Program-made: the position numbers and the translations under genes | Notes under the pieces: model-generated | Databases searched by the model: none | What the model saw: the letters and a program-made list of their open reading frames with translations, nothing else | What the model was told of the DNA's origin: nothing | In this document: one piece after another, positions 1,784-59,629 of the stretch | Numbering within the stretch: the stretch's first letter is position 1 | Layout: each line of letters opens with the position of its first letter | Sequence record: NC_042307.1 | Length of the DNA stretch: 64,000 nucleotides | Direction: 5' to 3' (one strand) | Source: a phage

Positions 1784-2316
1784 TAATAAGTAACCAATTC
1801 CTGTACAAATCGCAGGCTGTTATCACTGTTTGCGCCAACTGCATAGACTAATCGAGTGGATTCATAGTTATAATCCAGTATCATACTATCTAGGTGTATA
1901 TCTGCCTCTAGCTTCTGTTCACTAAAGATTGTAGATACAAAAGCACTTTCAATATGCCCATGTTGATACATTTCTAGAAGAAGATTAGCTCCACCTAGAA
2001 CTACTGTTTGCTGATCTTTTAGAAAAGTAGGTAATGTATCACCTATCATTGATATGGGAGTGTAAATATCATGTGTAATATCGTCTGGCAGTGGACGATC
2101 AGCACGAATAAATAGGTCAGAAGCTCCAATCATACGTTCCCTAACGGCATATGGAAGAGCTAAATAAGTACCTGCCCCAATAATAATATTATCAGGATTT
2201 AGTACATCTAATTGTGAATAAAAAGCATCTAGTTCTTCTTTAAAAGAACCCCAGGGGAGCTTACCTCGGAGGCCGAACTCCCCATTCGGCCCAACTGCAT
2301 ACATTGCTGTAATCAT
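1783..2316 (-). CDS. dihydrofolate reductase
   Basis: 177 aa; position between thyA and nrdB; start/stop overlaps (ATGA) with both neighbours. Confidence 0.75.
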   Translation of the reverse strand: MITAMYAVGPNGEFGLRGKLPWGSFKEELDAFYSQLDVLNPDNIIIGAGTYLALPYAVRERMIGASDLFIRADRPLPDDITHDIYTPISMIGDTLPTFLKDQQTVVLGGANLLLEMYQHGHIESAFVSTIFSEQKLEADIHLDSMILDYNYESTRLVYAVGANSDNSLRFVQELVTY

Positions 2317-3459
2317 AGGAAGTCTCCAAATTCATTACCCAAATCTTTCAAGGTATCAGTAGAGGTCTCAGTTACCTGACCTACACGGTAGGCTGCACCA
2401 ATCTGGATTTCTTGTGGGGCAGGCTGTAGAGAAGTAGTATCCAACCAGTTCATGATCCACGGAATAGGGTTTTTAGTGATTACTGGTAAGTGACTAGGCC
2501 ATTCTACACCAATGTGCATAAATGCGTTACGCCCCACAAAGTACAAGTATTCTTCTAGAAGTTCTGCATTCAAACCAATCAGACTACGACCTTTGAAGAT
2601 GAAATGACCCCATTCAATTTCAGTTTTAAGAGTTTTCAGGAGTTGTGCTGGTGCTTTAGCCACTGCTTCATCTACCAGATCTTTGTCAAACTGCTGGAAC
2701 ATAATCTGGATGATTGTTTTAGACATCTGAGTATGTAGGGCTTCATCTTTAGCAATCAATTGCAGATTTTTAGCAATACCTTGCAGAATATCGTTCTCTG
2801 CTAACGCAAAGGTACATGCAAAGGATGCGTAGAACTGCATTGCTTCCAGACCGTAGATTGCAAAATAAGCATCTAACAGTTTAGCCTGAGTTTCACGCTT
2901 AACCTCAGGGAACTCAGTTTCTGGATATGTATTGTCACCACGATGATCACGTACTGCGATGAAATACTGACCTAACTGGTACAGTTCATCGAACAGCTCA
3001 ACAGAATCAGCGATACGTGCGAATGCTTCTTGGTTTTTGGTTACAGAATCAATAAATTCTGCCGGATCAGTCAGCACATTACGAATAATATTACTATAAG
3101 CACGACTATGCAGGTCTTCAAAGTAGCTCCACTGCTTGAGCATACCTTCTAGTTCTGGACGACTTACAAGCGGCATAATAGCTGCTTCAGGCGCTCGACT
3201 GATAAAGGAATCAGTTTGGGTCTGCCATGCTAAGTTCAGGAGTGTGATTTCCTGAATTTCACGTGGGAGATTGGGCCATTGTTTCTTATCTGCTTCCAGA
3301 CTGATTTCAGTTTCAGTCCAAAATTGAGAGCGTTGCAGAAGTGCCAGACGTTCTAGTTCTGGATGTGCTACACGTACATAATCTGCGATACCTAGAGAAT
3401 CGCCCCAGGAAAAGATCAGCGTTAGTATGATCCCAATTCAGGTTTAGTAAAGTAGTCAT
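2313..3459 (-). CDS. nrdB: ribonucleotide reductase small subunit NrdB; reading frame interrupted near the 5' end (see findings)
   Basis: frame 0 is open 3437..2313 and aligns with class Ia NrdB (FSWGDSLGIADY.., SQFW.., RAPEAAIMPLVSRPELE.., HSRAYSNIIRN); only plausible ATG (3459..3457) is in another frame. Confidence 0.85.
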
Positions 3460-3594
3460 TGATTTTCCTCTTTCTCACTATTTCAGGAATATTATAGCAA
3501 ATCAGGTAGCGATTAGCAGGTAAAATTATAAACTATCAAGCTCCAATAGTTTCATATCGCGCCACTCTATAGCATCCTCAAGTTCTTGGAATGT

Positions 3595-4017
3595 TTAAGT
3601 ATATTTTACACCTTTACGGGCTATCTGTACCTGGTAAGATCCGCTAGCTTTTGGATGAATATTTTTAATACCTAACTTATTATCTTTATGCGCCCCGACA
3701 TTCTTTCCGTTACTGAATCTATCAGAAGCTACTAGGTTAATAGCTCTATTATCATGTCGTATTCTATTGTCGTGGTCTACTTCAGGTGGCAGATACCCAT
3801 GAATTTTAGCAAAGATTACCCTATGTGCTAAGTAGGGGTATCCTTTAATATTTAATACTATATATCCTGTAGATTTATCTAAGGAGCCTGCTGGTTTTCC
3901 GGCATATTTGGTATTAAATGTTTTATTATCTCTAGGTCTATGAGTTAATATTCCAGTATATGGATCATAATCAAATAATTTAGCTACCTCTAGATGATCT
4001 TCTAATGTTTTTGACAT
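3595..4017 (-). CDS. HNH homing endonuclease inserted between nrdA and nrdB
   Basis: MSKTLEDHLEVAKLFDYDPYTGIL..GYPYLAHRVIFAKIHGYLPPEVDHDNRIRHDNR; start taken as internal ATG 4017. Confidence 0.7.
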   Translation of the reverse strand: MSKTLEDHLEVAKLFDYDPYTGILTHRPRDNKTFNTKYAGKPAGSLDKSTGYIVLNIKGYPYLAHRVIFAKIHGYLPPEVDHDNRIRHDNRAINLVASDRFSNGKNVGAHKDNKLGIKNIHPKASGSYQVQIARKGVKYT

Positions 4018-4082
4018 AATTATAATTTCCAACCAATTAGTATAAAAAATAAGAGGGTTATAATTAACCCTCTTTACTAGTT

Positions 4083-6410: not shown

Positions 6411-6554
6411 TTGGTTTTCCTTTTTATAGTTATCAGGATTTAGGAAATAGTTTACTTTATTCTCAGTCATTTGGCAAATAAAATTTTCTGATAGAAAAGG
6501 CCCGAGTATTTTCATACCCAGGCCTCCTGTGTTGTCAGTCTAGTTTTTGGCCAC

Positions 6555-7800: not shown

Positions 7801-8670
7801 GTGGAATGCCCGAAAAAATTAACTCAAGAAGAAGTAGATAAATGCCTAGCCGAGCGTGGTTTTACTATGGTGGATAAGCCATATCAAAATTCTAGGTATA
7901 GGCATACGTATCAGTGTGAATACGGTCACCAATGGACAGCTAAATTTGACGCTATTAGGAATGGAAAGACCAATTGTCCTACTTGCTCTATTAGTAGCCG
8001 TAAACTAGATATTGATAAAATTAATACTATATTACAGGACAGAGGTATTACATTGTTGAACGGCTATAAAAATAGTGCCGATATAAATACTAAATTTAGG
8101 TGTGTTTGTGGTCATGAGTGGGCTACTACACTTAATAGTATAATTAATAGAGGTAGTGGCTGCCCATCTTGTGCTGCTAATAAACAGAAACTTAGTGTTA
8201 ATACTATAAATGATCGTCTTGCTGCCAGAAATATCAGAATAGTGGGTGAGTATAGTAATGCGAATACTAAGACCGCCTTTCTTTGTGGTGCAGGGCATAG
8301 GTGGGAAGCTACTCCAGGGTCTGTATTAAGGGGGAACGGTTGTCCTTACTGTAGTTATAGAGATTTAGAAAGTACTAGGATATATGTTATGTATAGCCCC
8401 TCACATGGGGTTAAAATAGGTAGGTCTAACAATCCAGAGCGTAGACTTCTACATATTAGATCTAGTAGCCACCTTATTGATTTGGAAATAATTAAAGTAT
8501 TTGAAATTGGGGAATATAGTAGTGCAGTTCGAATAGAAAAATTAGCCCATAACTACTTTAAAGAGCAGAATTGCCAGTACAAAGATTTTGACGGCGCTAC
8601 GGAATTCTTCAATATTGAACCAAAAGTAGCTATAAAGTTTATCGAGGAAATAATCAATGACAGAGAATGA
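7801..8670 (+). CDS. putative homing endonuclease: three tandem zinc-ribbon repeats plus C-terminal GIY-YIG-like/T5orf172-like domain
   Basis: repeats ..GEYSNANTKTAFLCGAGHRWEATPGSVLRGNGCPYCS; C-terminal IYVMYSPSHGVKIGRSNNPERRL; GTG start; paralogous to 60056..60730. Confidence 0.5.
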   Translation: MECPKKLTQEEVDKCLAERGFTMVDKPYQNSRYRHTYQCEYGHQWTAKFDAIRNGKTNCPTCSISSRKLDIDKINTILQDRGITLLNGYKNSADINTKFRCVCGHEWATTLNSIINRGSGCPSCAANKQKLSVNTINDRLAARNIRIVGEYSNANTKTAFLCGAGHRWEATPGSVLRGNGCPYCSYRDLESTRIYVMYSPSHGVKIGRSNNPERRLLHIRSSSHLIDLEIIKVFEIGEYSSAVRIEKLAHNYFKEQNCQYKDFDGATEFFNIEPKVAIKFIEEIINDRE

Positions 8671-13804: not shown

Positions 13805-14257
13805 ATGTCATTCACACAGCAAGAACTTTTAGATAACTTCCGGTATGAAGAGGGTAAGTTATTTAGAACTACAGGAAGAAATGCAGGGAAAGAATGTTGT
13901 GTTTCTACGGGTAACGGATATTATCGTATATCTCTAGGGAATAGGACTATGCTTCGGCATAGAGCAATATTTTTAATGCATCATGGATACTTACCTGATT
14001 TAGTAGACCATGTGAATACTATAAAAGGTGATGATCGTATTGAAAATCTTAGAGAGCAGACAGTATCCGGTAATCTAAGAAATATCAAATATAAGAAAGG
14101 AATGCATGTTTACCCTTCTGGTAGTAAGAACTGGCAAGTGGTATTTACTATTAACCGTAAACGTATAGTTAAAGGAACATATGACAACTATGAGGTTGCA
14201 TGTTCTATGGCCAAGATGTTTAGAGGTCAATTATACGGTAGGGAATCAATCCAGTAA
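13805..14257 (+). CDS. HNH homing endonuclease
   Basis: MSFTQQELLDNFRYEEGKLF..GYYRISLGNRTMLRHRAIFLMHHGYLPDLVDHVN; GGAGGTGAGG upstream of ATG 13805. Confidence 0.7.
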   Translation: MSFTQQELLDNFRYEEGKLFRTTGRNAGKECCVSTGNGYYRISLGNRTMLRHRAIFLMHHGYLPDLVDHVNTIKGDDRIENLREQTVSGNLRNIKYKKGMHVYPSGSKNWQVVFTINRKRIVKGTYDNYEVACSMAKMFRGQLYGRESIQ

Positions 14258-17580: not shown

Positions 17581-17815
17581 AAAATGGGAAACAAGGAAGT
17601 TTCCAGTAAAAGAACGTAAAGTTCCTGTTTATGATACTTCGGAGAAGCTATGTAGGGTGGTTCCTGCTAGACTAGCATCCATAAATGGCATAGGCGCATG
17701 GTTGCTAAAGCAGAGAAAGCAAAGCATATCATTACGTATATCTTTTGAGTTAGACCAAATCTATAGAGAATTGGGAGAATTGATTAAAGAAAATGATAAC
17801 ACAGGAAGAGGTTAG
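17564..17815 (+). CDS. hypothetical small basic protein (83 aa)
   Basis: ATG overlaps the stop of the upstream gene. Confidence 0.35.
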   Translation: MTVKNKKWETRKFPVKERKVPVYDTSEKLCRVVPARLASINGIGAWLLKQRKQSISLRISFELDQIYRELGELIKENDNTGRG

Positions 17816-18251
17816 AGAGGCTTTTGAGTATGATCCTGAAACAGGCCATCTTAAATGGAAGAAAACAAGACAGAAGAGTCTAGTAGGTAAGTTTGCCGGT
17901 GGTAAACATAAAGGGTATATAAGAATAGGGTTTAAGCGTAGGCACTGGGGAGAACATCAGCTGGTATTCTTATATCATAAGGGGTACATACCAGAAGAGA
18001 TAGACCACAAAAACAGGATTAAAGATTGCAACTTTATAGAGAATTTAGAAGACTCCAATAGATCTAAGCAAATGCACAATATTAATGTACGTAAAGACAA
18101 TAAGTTGGGTGAGCCTAATATCTACATGAGGGGCGATAAATATTGTGTGCTAATGCAGAAAGGATCTATTCGTAAGTACCAGCAGTGCAATACTATAGAA
18201 GAGGCTAAAAAAGTTAGGGCTAATTTTAAGTCCGAACTCTATCCAAATTAA
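17793..18251 (+). CDS. HNH homing endonuclease
   Basis: MITQEEVREAFEYDPETGHL..GYIRIGFKRRHWGEHQLVFLYHKGYIPEEIDHKNRIKD. Confidence 0.7.
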   Translation: MITQEEVREAFEYDPETGHLKWKKTRQKSLVGKFAGGKHKGYIRIGFKRRHWGEHQLVFLYHKGYIPEEIDHKNRIKDCNFIENLEDSNRSKQMHNINVRKDNKLGEPNIYMRGDKYCVLMQKGSIRKYQQCNTIEEAKKVRANFKSELYPN

Positions 18252-19818: not shown

Positions 19819-20116
19819 ATGACCAAAGCTGAAATTATCGCACAATGTGAAAAATTTGGTGAGTTTTATCTTCATTACGAGAAACTTCGTCAGAAAGGAA
19901 CCACGTACCTTCAGGGTACGATGGAATTTGATCCAGCTCAGGATAAATACCTGGCTGAGCGTATTAAACAGTGAACGTATTCGTAAAGCGAAAGATGATG
20001 AAATCCTTGTCTTCTCTCGTACTAATGATAGCTTCCGTTTTATTCCTGTCGAGAAAGTTCGTCGTGTGACTAGCCTCCAATCAGAGTTAGATCGTGCTTC
20101 TCCAGTAGGCCGATAA
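19819..20116 (+). CDS. hypothetical protein encoded in two frames: ORF-A 19819..19974 ends at TGA, coding signal continues in +1 frame to 20116 (see findings)
   Basis: AAAAGGAA upstream of ATG 19819; CGT-rich coding frame downstream of the TGA. Confidence 0.45.
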
Positions 20117-23358: not shown

Positions 23359-24831
23359 ATGACCTTGTTTAACGTGCAAGCTGTAGTGTTGAAGATGCTT
23401 CTAGCTTCCGAACAGAAGCAAATAGCATTGGAAACATTCTCAAAACTGCATAAAGATCATTTTAATGACGCTTTCTCCTCAATTTACCAAGCCGTCCAGA
23501 ATTATTATAAAAAATATAACACAATGCCGTCCATTGACGCACTGATGCTTGAGGCTAATAGGAACGCCCGCCTTTCTCAAGCTCTAGTCGTTTTAGCTAA
23601 CACTCAAATTCCAGAAGTTAGCATGGAACAGGCACTTGAAGTCCTAGAGGCCGAGTATACGCAGGATTTATTCCTGAAGCTTCTAGAAACAGACGTGCTT
23701 CAAGATTTAACAATGCTGGATCAGGGAGAAATTCTTAACCGAGTTGCCTCCCTTCACTTAAAATTAGAAGAGAAAGTAACGAATACTGGAAAAGTATTCA
23801 ACGCAGATAACATGCGTATTTTCCAGAGAGAAGAAGATACCAAACTGAACTTAATCGCTCTTGGTATTTGTAATGAGTTCGACGCTCAAATTGGTTTAGC
23901 TCGCACAGAAACGTTACTGCTTGGTGGTTGGCGTGGTACTGGTAAATCCATTATCTGTTCAAACATACAGGTTCAGCAATATTTGAATGGAGATATTGCT
24001 CCATACTTCTCAATTGAGATGAAAGAACATGAAGTATTTAGACGTAATCTAGCCATGTTAGCTGGTGTATCAGCACTAGCAATGCGTAATAATACTCTAG
24101 AAGGTGCAGCTCTGTTGAGATTAGCCAGAACTAGAGCTAGAATGTTTAACGGTGGTGAAGAGCTTTTCGATAACTTCGTTAAACAATACACAATGGCTAA
24201 GATGAGTGATTTCTACGATATGGAAAGTAAGCTAATAGAAGGATATGAGCTACATACTCCTATGATTATTGTTTATGATCCTGAGCTGTCTATTACAACA
24301 GTTGACGTAGAATTAAATAAATTAGTTGCTAGATATGGGGATAAAGTTACAGTAGCTTTACTTGACTATATTAACCAAACCCGACTTCCAGATTCTAAAA
24401 CCATTGATATGTATGACTGGAAAGAACAGATGGTTGTTAGCTCGTCTTTCAAATCCCTCTGCCAGAAACATAACGTGGCTGGTGTAGCTCCTTACCAGAT
24501 TGATCAAGATGGTAGAACACGTATGTCAAAAGGGATTCTTGATTCCGCAGACATGGCTGCTAATCTTAATGCTGCAAAAGCTGATAATGGTCAAGGTGCT
24601 ATTATGTTTGACTTCGTTAAGACCCGTTCTTCTGATAGCGTGAAGTTTATGCCTAAAATGAACTGGGAAACCCTGCGGATGGATAACACTACCAACCTAG
24701 CAATGGAAGATATATCTCAAATGGAAGCTGAGTTCGTTATCCCTATTGAGAAGGATAAGCCAGCTCAATCTAAACGTGCTAAGAAAGACAAAGCTGAAAA
24801 TTCAACAGGTGAACAGGCCAGCGATATATGA
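23359..24831 (+). CDS. replicative DNA helicase (DnaB-like)
   Basis: Walker A GGWRGTGKS, DnaB-like LDYINQ motif; AAAGGAGA upstream of ATG 23359. Confidence 0.6.
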   Translation: MTLFNVQAVVLKMLLASEQKQIALETFSKLHKDHFNDAFSSIYQAVQNYYKKYNTMPSIDALMLEANRNARLSQALVVLANTQIPEVSMEQALEVLEAEYTQDLFLKLLETDVLQDLTMLDQGEILNRVASLHLKLEEKVTNTGKVFNADNMRIFQREEDTKLNLIALGICNEFDAQIGLARTETLLLGGWRGTGKSIICSNIQVQQYLNGDIAPYFSIEMKEHEVFRRNLAMLAGVSALAMRNNTLEGAALLRLARTRARMFNGGEELFDNFVKQYTMAKMSDFYDMESKLIEGYELHTPMIIVYDPELSITTVDVELNKLVARYGDKVTVALLDYINQTRLPDSKTIDMYDWKEQMVVSSSFKSLCQKHNVAGVAPYQIDQDGRTRMSKGILDSADMAANLNAAKADNGQGAIMFDFVKTRSSDSVKFMPKMNWETLRMDNTTNLAMEDISQMEAEFVIPIEKDKPAQSKRAKKDKAENSTGEQASDI

Positions 24832-25361
24832 TAACACAGGAACGACTAAAAGAACTGTTTGACTACTCCCCAGAGACTGGGGAGTTTATTAGAAAAGTAT
24901 CTAGAGGCAACCAGAAAGCCGGGAGTATAGTAACTAGAAAGGATTCAAACGGTTATATAATTATCGGTATAGATGGTAGGGATTATAAAGCCCATCGTAT
25001 GGCCTTCCTATTTATGGAAAACACGTTACCTGAAAAAGTAGACCATATAAACCGTATACGAAGTGATAATCGATGGTGTAATCTAAGAGACGCCACAGCC
25101 CAGGAAAATAGTAGAAATAAAACCGCATGTAGTAAGTCTGGATATTTGGGAGTTGCTTGGGATATAGAAAAACAAAGATGGAGAGTTCAAGTAAGAGACT
25201 CTAATAGCACTCTTAAAAATGGTGGCAGATTTAAGTATGAAGAGCTAGAGCTAGCTGTAAATTCAGCAAATATATTAAGGACTAAGTTACATGGAGAACG
25301 TGCTGTTATAGAATTTTTTGATACATCTAATTATCCTTCACTGGAGGAGTTAAATTCATGA
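24828..25361 (+). CDS. HNH homing endonuclease
   Basis: MITQERLKELFDYSPETGEF..GYIIIGIDGRDYKAHRMAFLFMENTLPEKVDHINRIRSDNR; ATGA overlap with helicase stop. Confidence 0.75.
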   Translation: MITQERLKELFDYSPETGEFIRKVSRGNQKAGSIVTRKDSNGYIIIGIDGRDYKAHRMAFLFMENTLPEKVDHINRIRSDNRWCNLRDATAQENSRNKTACSKSGYLGVAWDIEKQRWRVQVRDSNSTLKNGGRFKYEELELAVNSANILRTKLHGERAVIEFFDTSNYPSLEELNS

Positions 25362-30712: not shown

Positions 30713-31246
30713 ATGATAACTCAACAAAGATTAAAAGAATTACTAATATATGATCCAGATTCTGGCCACTTTATTAACAAGGTGTCCAGGGGCAGAGGAG
30801 GTAAAATTGGGGCTATTGCTGGAAGTCCTGATAAAGATGGATATATAATCATAGGTATAGATAGGAAATCTTATAAAGCCCATCGCTTAGCCTTCTTGTA
30901 CATGGAAGGCTATATGCCTACTGAAGTAGACCACGATAATAGAATACCTTATGATAATAAATGGAGTAACTTAAAAGATTCTTCTCATTCGGAAAATATG
31001 AAAAACCGTAACCCTTATAGTAAATCTGGTTATAAAGGAGTTACGTGGAATAAGGTTAAGAAGAAATGGCAAGTACAAGTGTGTAGGTCAGATGGTTCTA
31101 CAGTTTATGGTGGGTTATTCCCTTATGAAGAATTAGAGTTAGCTATAAATAAAGCTAATGAACTTAGAGTACAGCATCTAGGTATGGATTCCAGGCAAGA
31201 ACTATTTAAAGGATATATTTGCCGACGTGAGGACTTAGATAAGTAA
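30713..31246 (+). CDS. HNH homing endonuclease
   Basis: MITQQRLKELLIYDPDSGHF..GYIIIGIDRKSYKAHRLAFLYMEGYMPTEVDHDNRIPYDNK. Confidence 0.75.
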   Translation: MITQQRLKELLIYDPDSGHFINKVSRGRGGKIGAIAGSPDKDGYIIIGIDRKSYKAHRLAFLYMEGYMPTEVDHDNRIPYDNKWSNLKDSSHSENMKNRNPYSKSGYKGVTWNKVKKKWQVQVCRSDGSTVYGGLFPYEELELAINKANELRVQHLGMDSRQELFKGYICRREDLDK

Positions 31247-32579: not shown

Positions 32580-33110
32580 ATGAGAAATAAGCTATATTCC
32601 TTATTTTTGGAAGACCCTAAAAAATTCATTTTATTAGTAAATAAATTCAGAGAAAGATTTTCCTATGATCCTGAGTCCGGGCTACTCTCTAGGAAAATAG
32701 GAACGGGTGGTCAGTTACCAGGATCTATAGTAGGCACGGATAATGGAAAAGGATATTTAAGAACCTCATTTAATAAGGAGCAGTATCTTGTACATTTAAT
32801 TATTTATGCCATGCAGACTAATGAAATGGCAGAAGTAGTAGATCACAAAGACTTAGATAAGAAGAATAATAGATGGAGTAATCTAAGACCAACTAATAAA
32901 TCAGGTAATGAAAGAAACACAAGCGTAAGATCTAATAGTACCACAGGTGTTAAAAATGTATATTGGATACCTGGGAGACATAAGTATAGGGTTCAGTTTA
33001 AAATCCACGGAGAAACAAAATACTTTGGATATTATGATACTATTCAAGAAGCAGAAGTAGTAGCTGATAGGGAACGTAGGCGACTACACGGAGAATTTGC
33101 CAGATCATGA
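32580..33110 (+). CDS. HNH homing endonuclease
   Basis: ..FRERFSYDPESGLLSRK..GYLRTSFNKEQYLVHLIIYAM..VDHKDLDKKNNRWSNLR. Confidence 0.7.
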   Translation: MRNKLYSLFLEDPKKFILLVNKFRERFSYDPESGLLSRKIGTGGQLPGSIVGTDNGKGYLRTSFNKEQYLVHLIIYAMQTNEMAEVVDHKDLDKKNNRWSNLRPTNKSGNERNTSVRSNSTTGVKNVYWIPGRHKYRVQFKIHGETKYFGYYDTIQEAEVVADRERRRLHGEFARS

Positions 33111-50824: not shown

Positions 50825-50846
50825 ATTTTATTTTTCCCAATAAAAA

Positions 50847-58417: not shown

Positions 58418-59629
58418 TTAATCTCCCTCGGTGGAACCTTTAGGTCTACCACCTTCTTGACCAGATACACCTGTTGCAGAACCAGCGACGTTAGCAGGAA
58501 TACGGATCTTATTCATCTGCTCATCATCTAAAGGCTCAAGGTTCAGCTCTGAACGAGCTTCGTTACCGGTTATAATACCATTATTAACCAATGAGGTTAA
58601 ATGTTTAGCCTCTGCTTCTTTATCTGGTGTTAATGCTGCGACTTCCTTAGTATTAGGAGTGATCTTATAACCAAAAAAGAAAGTAAGAGAACTAGTCAGT
58701 TTGTTCAGCATAGGAATGATAGTCATATAATAGAACAATTCGATGTTTGGTCGAATGTTCGCATTATTACCACCATCAAGCAGTACTTGCGGAACTCCAA
58801 AGGCTAGACAAATAGATTTATTAAATCCTTCGATGTCTTCCTTAAAGTCTAGATCTTTAAAAGAGGATATTTGGGAGTACGGTTTAGCTTTCATACCACC
58901 ATCTAGAATCAGGACAGAAGACTGACCCGTACTAGGATTATAATCGAGTTGTAATTCTTCTTGTTTACGCTCACGCAATTTCTTGTTCAGGATTTCATCC
59001 GTCTCAAGAATAAGACCAATCACGGTTCCGTTATCGAGGAATTTCTCTTTAAAGTTAAGCATCTTAGAACGCTTCTCAAGAGAATCAATAACAGTAGCAA
59101 CACGAGATTGTCCAGAAATTTGAGAGTTTGTGCCACACACGTAACTGTTATCCTTTATAAAGATAATCTCATCTACGCGATAGTCTATCTGATTATTAAA
59201 TGTAAATTTTTTGATAAACTTATTGGCATCTGCCTCGACCTGCATAAGAGCAGCCGGGACGTGGTAAAGCGATGTGCCATCCCAATAGATGTATGCACAA
59301 CCTTCAAAAAGTAGGTCAGTGACTACAAGTCTACGGAATGTGCTTATATCCATGAATGGATTAGGTCGTACATTTAAGAGAGTGTCTAGAGTCTTTGTTT
59401 TGACGCCATTAGCGTACGTAACAATATTATATTTATCTCCGACAGTATAAGAACACTCCGCCGCACTATCTATAACCATATTAGCAGTTCGATTGAGAAT
59501 CTCAATCTTGCTATAGGCTTGTCCAGTGGTAAAAGGCTTACGGTTAGTGCGATGACTAACTGGTTCCATGTCTCTTATAATACGTTGACCCGGATTTAGC
59601 TTTTCAGTAATCCAGCTTTTAAAACCCAT
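58418..59629 (-). CDS. portal protein
   Basis: 403 aa; position next to terminase. Confidence 0.65.
   Translation of the reverse strand: MGFKSWITEKLNPGQRIIRDMEPVSHRTNRKPFTTGQAYSKIEILNRTANMVIDSAAECSYTVGDKYNIVTYANGVKTKTLDTLLNVRPNPFMDISTFRRLVVTDLLFEGCAYIYWDGTSLYHVPAALMQVEADANKFIKKFTFNNQIDYRVDEIIFIKDNSYVCGTNSQISGQSRVATVIDSLEKRSKMLNFKEKFLDNGTVIGLILETDEILNKKLRERKQEELQLDYNPSTGQSSVLILDGGMKAKPYSQISSFKDLDFKEDIEGFNKSICLAFGVPQVLLDGGNNANIRPNIELFYYMTIIPMLNKLTSSLTFFFGYKITPNTKEVAALTPDKEAEAKHLTSLVNNGIITGNEARSELNLEPLDDEQMNKIRIPANVAGSATGVSGQEGGRPKGSTEGD

Follow-up and report, generated by a model that had tools for sequence, protein, structure and literature searches.

The nrdB gene of the phage record NC_042307.1, which should encode the small subunit of the class Ia ribonucleotide reductase (RNR), is interrupted by one additional G at the codon for Gly-19, and this base appears from sequence comparison to be a non-programmed single-base insertion that is present only in this record. 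As to its origin, we prefer, though only at even chances, a homopolymer miscall during sequencing or assembly that would have added the G, and the phage itself would then, with the same balance of belief and doubt, carry an ordinary intact nrdB coding for a 381-aa class Ia small subunit. We infer that sequencing, and not the phage, gave rise to the additional G. Either way, as a base-calling error or as a fresh knockout, it is a familiar and ordinary kind of event.

The window analysed here, a 64-kb stretch of NC_042307.1, belongs to a T5-like phage (Tequintavirus) whose closest records are 92–97% identical to it, and none of the database records compared was near-identical. A block of genes on its minus strand comprises nrdA, an HNH endonuclease gene, nrdB, frd (DHFR), and thyA. 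In relatives, the annotated nrdB CDS is 1146 nt long and starts from the homologous ATG. In NC_042307.1, this start codon (3457–3459, minus strand, as for all nrdB coordinates below) has a position and context identical to those of the annotated start in relatives and is preceded, 7 nt to its 5' side, by a directly readable Shine-Dalgarno (SD) sequence (AAGAGGA, 3466–3472, with GAGG at 3470–3467) that is invariant among them. The zero frame that opens at the ATG begins with MTTLLNLNWDHTNADLFLGRFSRY and spans 48 codons (3313–3459): after 19 genuine NrdB residues, up to which it reads MTTLLNLNWDHTNADLFLG, it continues through 29 unrelated, out-of-frame residues to a stop codon at 3315–3313. The body of NrdB, i.e., residues 19–381 and the stop (2313–3404), lies in the +1 frame, contains ...SWGDSLGIADYVRVAHPELERL..., terminates at 2315–2313 and was 99.4–99.7% identical to the NrdB of SHSML-45 and FFH1 in tblastn searches.

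A first-pass annotation of this DNA had described the NrdB-homologous frame as open from 3437 to 2313, closed upstream by a TGA and devoid of start codons before 3176, and had placed the SD-preceded ATG in a different frame. Direct reading, translations and the ORF listing agree with this description, including the separate, 48-codon frame of the ATG. The TGA that closes the body frame on its upstream side is found at 3438–3440 (direct reading and translation), and the ORF listing shows no ATG, GTG or TTG among the 87 codons with which the open body frame begins. Because the listing takes the first of these codons after a stop as the start of an ORF, the body-frame ORF starts at 3176, with its first in-frame ATG (3174–3176); this is Met-95 of the intact protein, and a start there gives 287 aa. 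The string proposed as the site of the shift, CUUUUCCUGGGGCGA, exists too, at 3414–3400 of the minus strand rather than at 3416–3402. Within the GGGG run (3403–3406, CCCC on the plus strand), the deletion of one G yields a continuous 381-aa protein, just as the same annotation had predicted. Since the frame break is a deterministic feature of the sequence, chance is not at issue.

The sequence with one G deleted reached 125.4 bits against the PF00268 profile (curated cut-off of 33.6 bits) and E-values of 1e−62 to 2e−65 against solved class Ia R2 chains. Query residues 6–371 were aligned with E. coli NrdB entries and residues 12–372 with the best chain, 7mdi_E. This alignment includes the N-terminal F-x-G stretch, which is encoded upstream of the frameshift and through which, as described at first pass, the product of the ATG frame aligns with the NrdB N-terminus. 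The di-iron ligands and the radical tyrosine of E. coli R2 are D84, E115, H118, Y122, E204, E238, and H241, and the segments tDS, fEdlHSraY, lEamqFY, and DEalH of the repaired protein align with their counterparts in 7mdi_E. Once repaired, the gene thus encodes a standard class Ia ribonucleotide reductase small subunit (NrdB/R2), and it belongs to the conserved nrdB orthologues of T5-like phages. What the gene as written lacks in comparison with a class Ia R2 gene is only an uninterrupted frame, the ATG frame ending after 48 codons.

Alignment with related phages (FFH1, Kenya-K44, oldekolle, EPS7, phC17, and S124) attributes the frame change to a 1-nt insertion, G3 to G4, at Gly-19. Relatives read CCT-GGG-N-GAT at this site (Leu-Gly-Asp, with GGA, GGC or GGT as the codon for Gly-19 and GAT for Asp-20) vs. 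CCT-GGGG-C-GAT here, which agrees with the homopolymer indel in the GGGG run that had been suggested at first pass. The G3 run was present in 29 of the 29 loci fetched from nrdB-bearing relatives. A 66-nt probe with the site at its centre matched 379 phage records, the best of them at 65 of 66 positions with the extra base as the sole difference, and an identical match was found in none of the 379. These records, like the 29 relatives, all have GGG at this point and code for an intact NrdB of 381 aa. In IMG/VR, the GGGG version of the site had no exact match in any contig (13 contigs for the GGG control), and all contigs with a DHFR identical to that of NC_042307.1 (10 of 10) carried an intact 381-aa NrdB. 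The comparison of the 5' end of nrdB with other T5-like phages, which had been recommended as a check, detected the extra base in none of the relatives compared. A scan of metagenome and genome contigs with the 17-nt pattern CTTTTCCTGGGGNGAYTC was uninformative, as the pattern is too short: the matches listed were chance ones from organisms unrelated to the phage, and no resemblance to T5 nrdB was seen in any of the 240 loci fetched from among them.

The age of the change was approached through private substitutions, i.e., those absent from 18 non-redundant relatives. These occupy 14 sites over 2.6 kb and place NC_042307.1 on a real private branch. Eight of the substitutions fall within nrdB downstream of the shift and all eight are synonymous, while random expectation is 78% non-synonymous (P about 6e−6 for 8:0), and they give no sign of pseudogene decay in this part of the gene. 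Purifying selection has therefore acted on nrdB for essentially the whole branch and, as it did so until essentially now, the insertion must be of very recent date if it is biological at all.

The surroundings of nrdB carry private changes as well. Its promoter (3491–3519, minus strand) consists of a −35 hexamer CTGCTA (3519–3514), a 17-nt spacer, and an extended −10 element (TGcTATAAT, 3499–3491) that is kept in NC_042307.1. At 3519 (minus strand), the first base of the −35 hexamer shows a private T to C change (TTGCTA to CTGCTA; the aligned base is T in 17 relatives, and one shows a gap), and a promoter scan that found TTGCTA-17-TATAAT in phC17 left the NC_042307.1 copy under its threshold. 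Between nrdA and nrdB (3529–4017, minus strand), profile match and alignment identified a free-standing HNH_3 homing-endonuclease gene. Here, a private AAA to TAA nonsense change at 3597–3595 (minus strand) leaves 140 aa instead of 163; the codon is AAA in all five relatives with the gene, and 'TFQELEDAIEWRDMKLLELDSL' is still in frame after the premature stop. This HNH allele is about 95% identical at the DNA level to that of phC17 and about 79% to that of FFH1, and the gene is without a counterpart in oldekolle and in 10 of 10 contigs with the identical DHFR (nrdA end about 1752, nrdB start 1859). The HNH gene does not account for the frameshift in nrdB, which is intact in the relatives that bear an HNH gene.

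Over a stretch of about 135 nt, four private substitutions (3653, 3597, 3588, and 3519, minus strand) share a pattern in which the first base of a run becomes a copy of the preceding base (C-AAAAA to CC-AAAA, T-AAAA to TT-AAA, C-AAAG to CC-AAG, and C-TT to CC-T), and the nrdB insertion likewise copies its neighbouring base. Such run-boundary copies could stem from misalignment mutagenesis or from base-calling errors at run boundaries. The replication gene block contains at least six more HNH-type homing-endonuclease paralogues at scattered positions (2–457, 13805–14254, 17793–18227, 24828–25358, 30713–31243, and 32628–33107), and several of them match fragments that the SHSML-45 annotation lists as short 'homing endonuclease' CDSs. 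The nrdA of this latter phage (4867–8109) is annotated with 1080 aa and that of FFH1 with 777 aa; residues about 292–595 of the SHSML-45 protein have no counterpart in the nrdA of NC_042307.1, which suggests that the additional segment may be an intein or another in-frame mobile insertion.

Sequencing or assembly error in the form of a homopolymer miscall is the explanation that survives best, and we hold it to be as probable as all others together. It is favoured by the absence of the extra base from the 29 relatives fetched and the 379 phage records, by the lack of any IMG/VR match for the GGGG version (13 for the GGG control), by the intact 381-aa NrdB in 10 of 10 contigs with the identical DHFR, and by private substitutions that are 8 of 8 synonymous, without pseudogene decay. 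Also in line with a miscall, no damage is seen in the partner genes nrdA, nrdD, thyA, and frd. In addition, two more private 1-nt coding insertions were found in the same 64-kb window, which raises doubts about the sequence quality of the record, as a modest rate of indel errors would be expected to leave several unique frame-breaking insertions in otherwise conserved genes. The first is an extra C (ATG[C]CCG, 7806–7812, plus strand; C2 to C3 at 7809) directly after the ATG of a gene that extends to 8667, contains T5orf172/MUG113/CapR/DUF4379 domains and is annotated as a putative homing endonuclease; it occurred in 0 of 34 matching records, and the frame can still be entered at a GTG (7801), but with poor SD spacing. 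The second is an extra A (TTAAAC[A]GTG, 19970, plus strand) in the ORF at 19819–20113, a 98-aa hypothetical gene flanked by the D3 gene and ligase genes, where it creates a TGA that shortens the product to 51 aa and was seen in 0 of 411 matching phage records. When FFH1 and SHSML-45 were compared with each other, neither showed frame-change breaks, which is the only usable class of this reciprocal ORF-mapping control, made noisy by antisense and extended mechanical ORFs; isolated 1-nt indels assignable to either phage were located outside their annotated CDSs.

Outside coding sequences, homopolymer lengths differ from those of relatives at 4046–4051, after the nrdA terminator (a T6 run vs. T5), at 6484, upstream of nrdA (a T4 run vs. 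T3, common to FFH1), and at 50842 and 50890 (A5 vs. A6 and C4 vs. C3), all of these positions being intergenic. An in-frame stop in the portal gene (AAA to TAA, 58418–58420, minus strand) was considered as a further lesion and rejected, as only the C-terminal 'KE' is lost in comparison with FFH1; the portal gene is otherwise 98% identical to that of FFH1 and the early stop is probably harmless.

Several observations nevertheless speak against a miscall. The frame-breaking lesions all affect plausibly dispensable genes (nrdB, the T5orf172-type endonuclease gene, and the 98-aa ORF), and none was found in the ~50 kb of replication and structural genes, where random errors should mostly fall. A G4 run would rarely be miscalled if the record came from Illumina chemistry. 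Furthermore, the private nonsense substitution in the HNH gene and the private −35 change are not homopolymer-type errors, and they show that the nrdB region does contain genuine disruptive changes.

The second explanation is a genuine and very recent loss of function in which polymerase slippage added the G, leaving a 48-codon product and no functional R2; we consider it slightly less probable than a coin toss. Provided that the extra base is genuine, the frameshift that the sequence shows at codon 19/20 would abolish R2 and constitute a loss-of-function lesion. The phage would then rely on the class Ia RNR of its host together with its own anaerobic NrdD, and the loss could be neutral during laboratory propagation or could have been selected as an escape from an RNR-triggered defence, e.g., DRT9. 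In a study on this defence, nrdA frameshift mutants of T5 and of the T5-like Bas37, as well as nrdB frameshift mutants of Bas37, form plaques, and such nrdA/nrdB mutants were obtained by selection on E. coli that expresses the reverse-transcriptase defence DRT9 (PMC12483538). A knockout here would resemble these mutants, which are viable and escape DRT9. The confinement of all disruptive lesions in the window to plausibly dispensable genes, with ~50 kb of replication, recombination, tail, and head genes undamaged, points in the same direction, as do the private −35 T to C change, by which the nrdB promoter drops below the scan threshold, and the premature stop that the neighbouring HNH gene has acquired privately; the real private branch (14 sites in 2.6 kb) also leaves time for real indels.

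On the other hand, with synonymous and non-synonymous changes at 8:0, an inactivation could have occurred only in about the final tenth of the private branch, nrdA shows no lesion at all, and a single promoter change in 66 nt fits the neutral expectation for the branch. Nor was an independent assembly with the GGGG allele found in IMG/VR, the 379 phage records or exact-product look-ups. In these look-ups, none of four lineage-specific products (the 287-aa truncated NrdB, the 48-aa out-of-frame peptide, the truncated HNH protein, and the ThyA of this lineage) was on record, so that no independent assembly is at hand to confirm or refute the extra base. A natural loss of RNR as a defence escape is speculative in this case: if the base were real, NC_042307.1 would be a T5-like phage that has lost its RNR in nature, which one unverified private allele cannot establish. 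In annotation, nrdB calls for a frameshift flag or a check against the reads, and should not be entered as a 287-aa NrdB or as two ORFs.

Translational recoding, which the first-pass annotation had named as the alternative to an indel, is highly improbable. It would involve a +1 shift at CUG-GGG-G, before the uncommon CGA, that makes full-length NrdB, perhaps in reduced amounts, or alternatively a shift at CUU-U three codons upstream of GGG-G, and this low estimate covers both sites jointly. The GGG-G quadruplet is indeed followed by a zero-frame CGA, which accounts for 7% of the Arg codons (3.2 per 1000) in the long ORFs of the phage, a prfB-like CUU-U motif is present just upstream, and a shift at GGG-G would restore the wild-type protein sequence exactly. 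Programmed frameshift sites are, however, conserved among homologues, and the out-of-frame arrangement occurred in 0 of 29 relatives, 0 of 379 records and no IMG/VR contig (13 for the control). With the arrangement seen in none of >400 related sequences and the usual stimulatory elements absent, this part of the first-pass annotation is not supported. By direct reading, neither candidate P-site is preceded within 15 nt by a GGAGG-like SD stimulator; no zero-frame stop occurs at the site, and this frame continues for 29 codons; the local RNA fold is unremarkable (z = −0.74); the zero-frame codon in the A site would be CGA, which is uncommon without being extreme and is not a stop; and a shift at CUU-U would put S-W in place of the conserved F-L. 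The 64-kb window contains no tRNA genes. More improbable still is a real extra G combined with low-level NrdB synthesis through +1 slippage of tRNA-Gly on GGG-G before a slowly decoded CGA. If true, this lineage would have turned its RNR small subunit down instead of losing it, possibly to a level too low to trigger a defence that senses RNR or dATP, e.g., DRT9. With a real GGGG, the diagnostic NrdB peptide ...NADLFLGDSLGIADYVR would distinguish the outcomes, its presence indicating +1 recoding and its absence a null allele.

The least probable of the explanations weighed is an N-terminally truncated NrdB initiated at Met-95 (3176) or at the ATT/CTG codons at 3437–3417. The body frame is open from 3437, but these non-canonical codons have no Shine-Dalgarno sequence and are situated 20–40 nt downstream of the only one. 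In E. coli R2, the QT..DS stretch holds the iron ligand Asp84. The 287-aa product from Met-95 lacks this conserved stretch, which aligns with class Ia R2 and reads 'QTQTDSF' in the repaired protein; its aspartate presumably corresponds to Asp84, and the 287-aa ORF, having no such equivalent, is not plausible as a functional gene. Transcriptional slippage was rejected on first principles, as G4 is far shorter than known slippage tracts.

Returning to the insertion itself, its closest experimental parallel is found among the DRT9 escapers of T5 and Bas37, likewise frameshifts in an RNR gene of a T5-like phage that are compatible with plaque formation (PMC12483538). Those mutants were laboratory-selected and verified by read mapping (PMC12483538), whereas the allele in NC_042307.1 is a putative one. 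The +1 frameshifting of prfB (RF2) is similar in that a +1 shift is needed and a CUU-U motif is present, but the nrdB site lacks conservation, an in-frame stop, and an SD-like stimulator upstream, and does not qualify as a case of this kind. The neighbouring HNH gene can be compared with mobE of T4, a free-standing homing endonuclease between nrdA and nrdB. As with mobE, an endonuclease gene lies between the genes of the RNR subunits, and only part of the relatives have it; unlike mobE, the gene here presumably belongs to a different endonuclease family or lineage, and it bears a premature stop. The order nrdA, optional HNH, nrdB, frd, and thyA is common to NC_042307.1 and Tequintavirus/Epseptimavirus phages, and their intact nrdB genes (e.g., FFH1 AHN83526, oldekolle QIN99323, and phC17 WGG14653) share locus, promoter, SD sequence, and ATG with the gene described here, the difference being the one extra G at Gly-19 by which the annotated 381-aa frame is interrupted in NC_042307.1.
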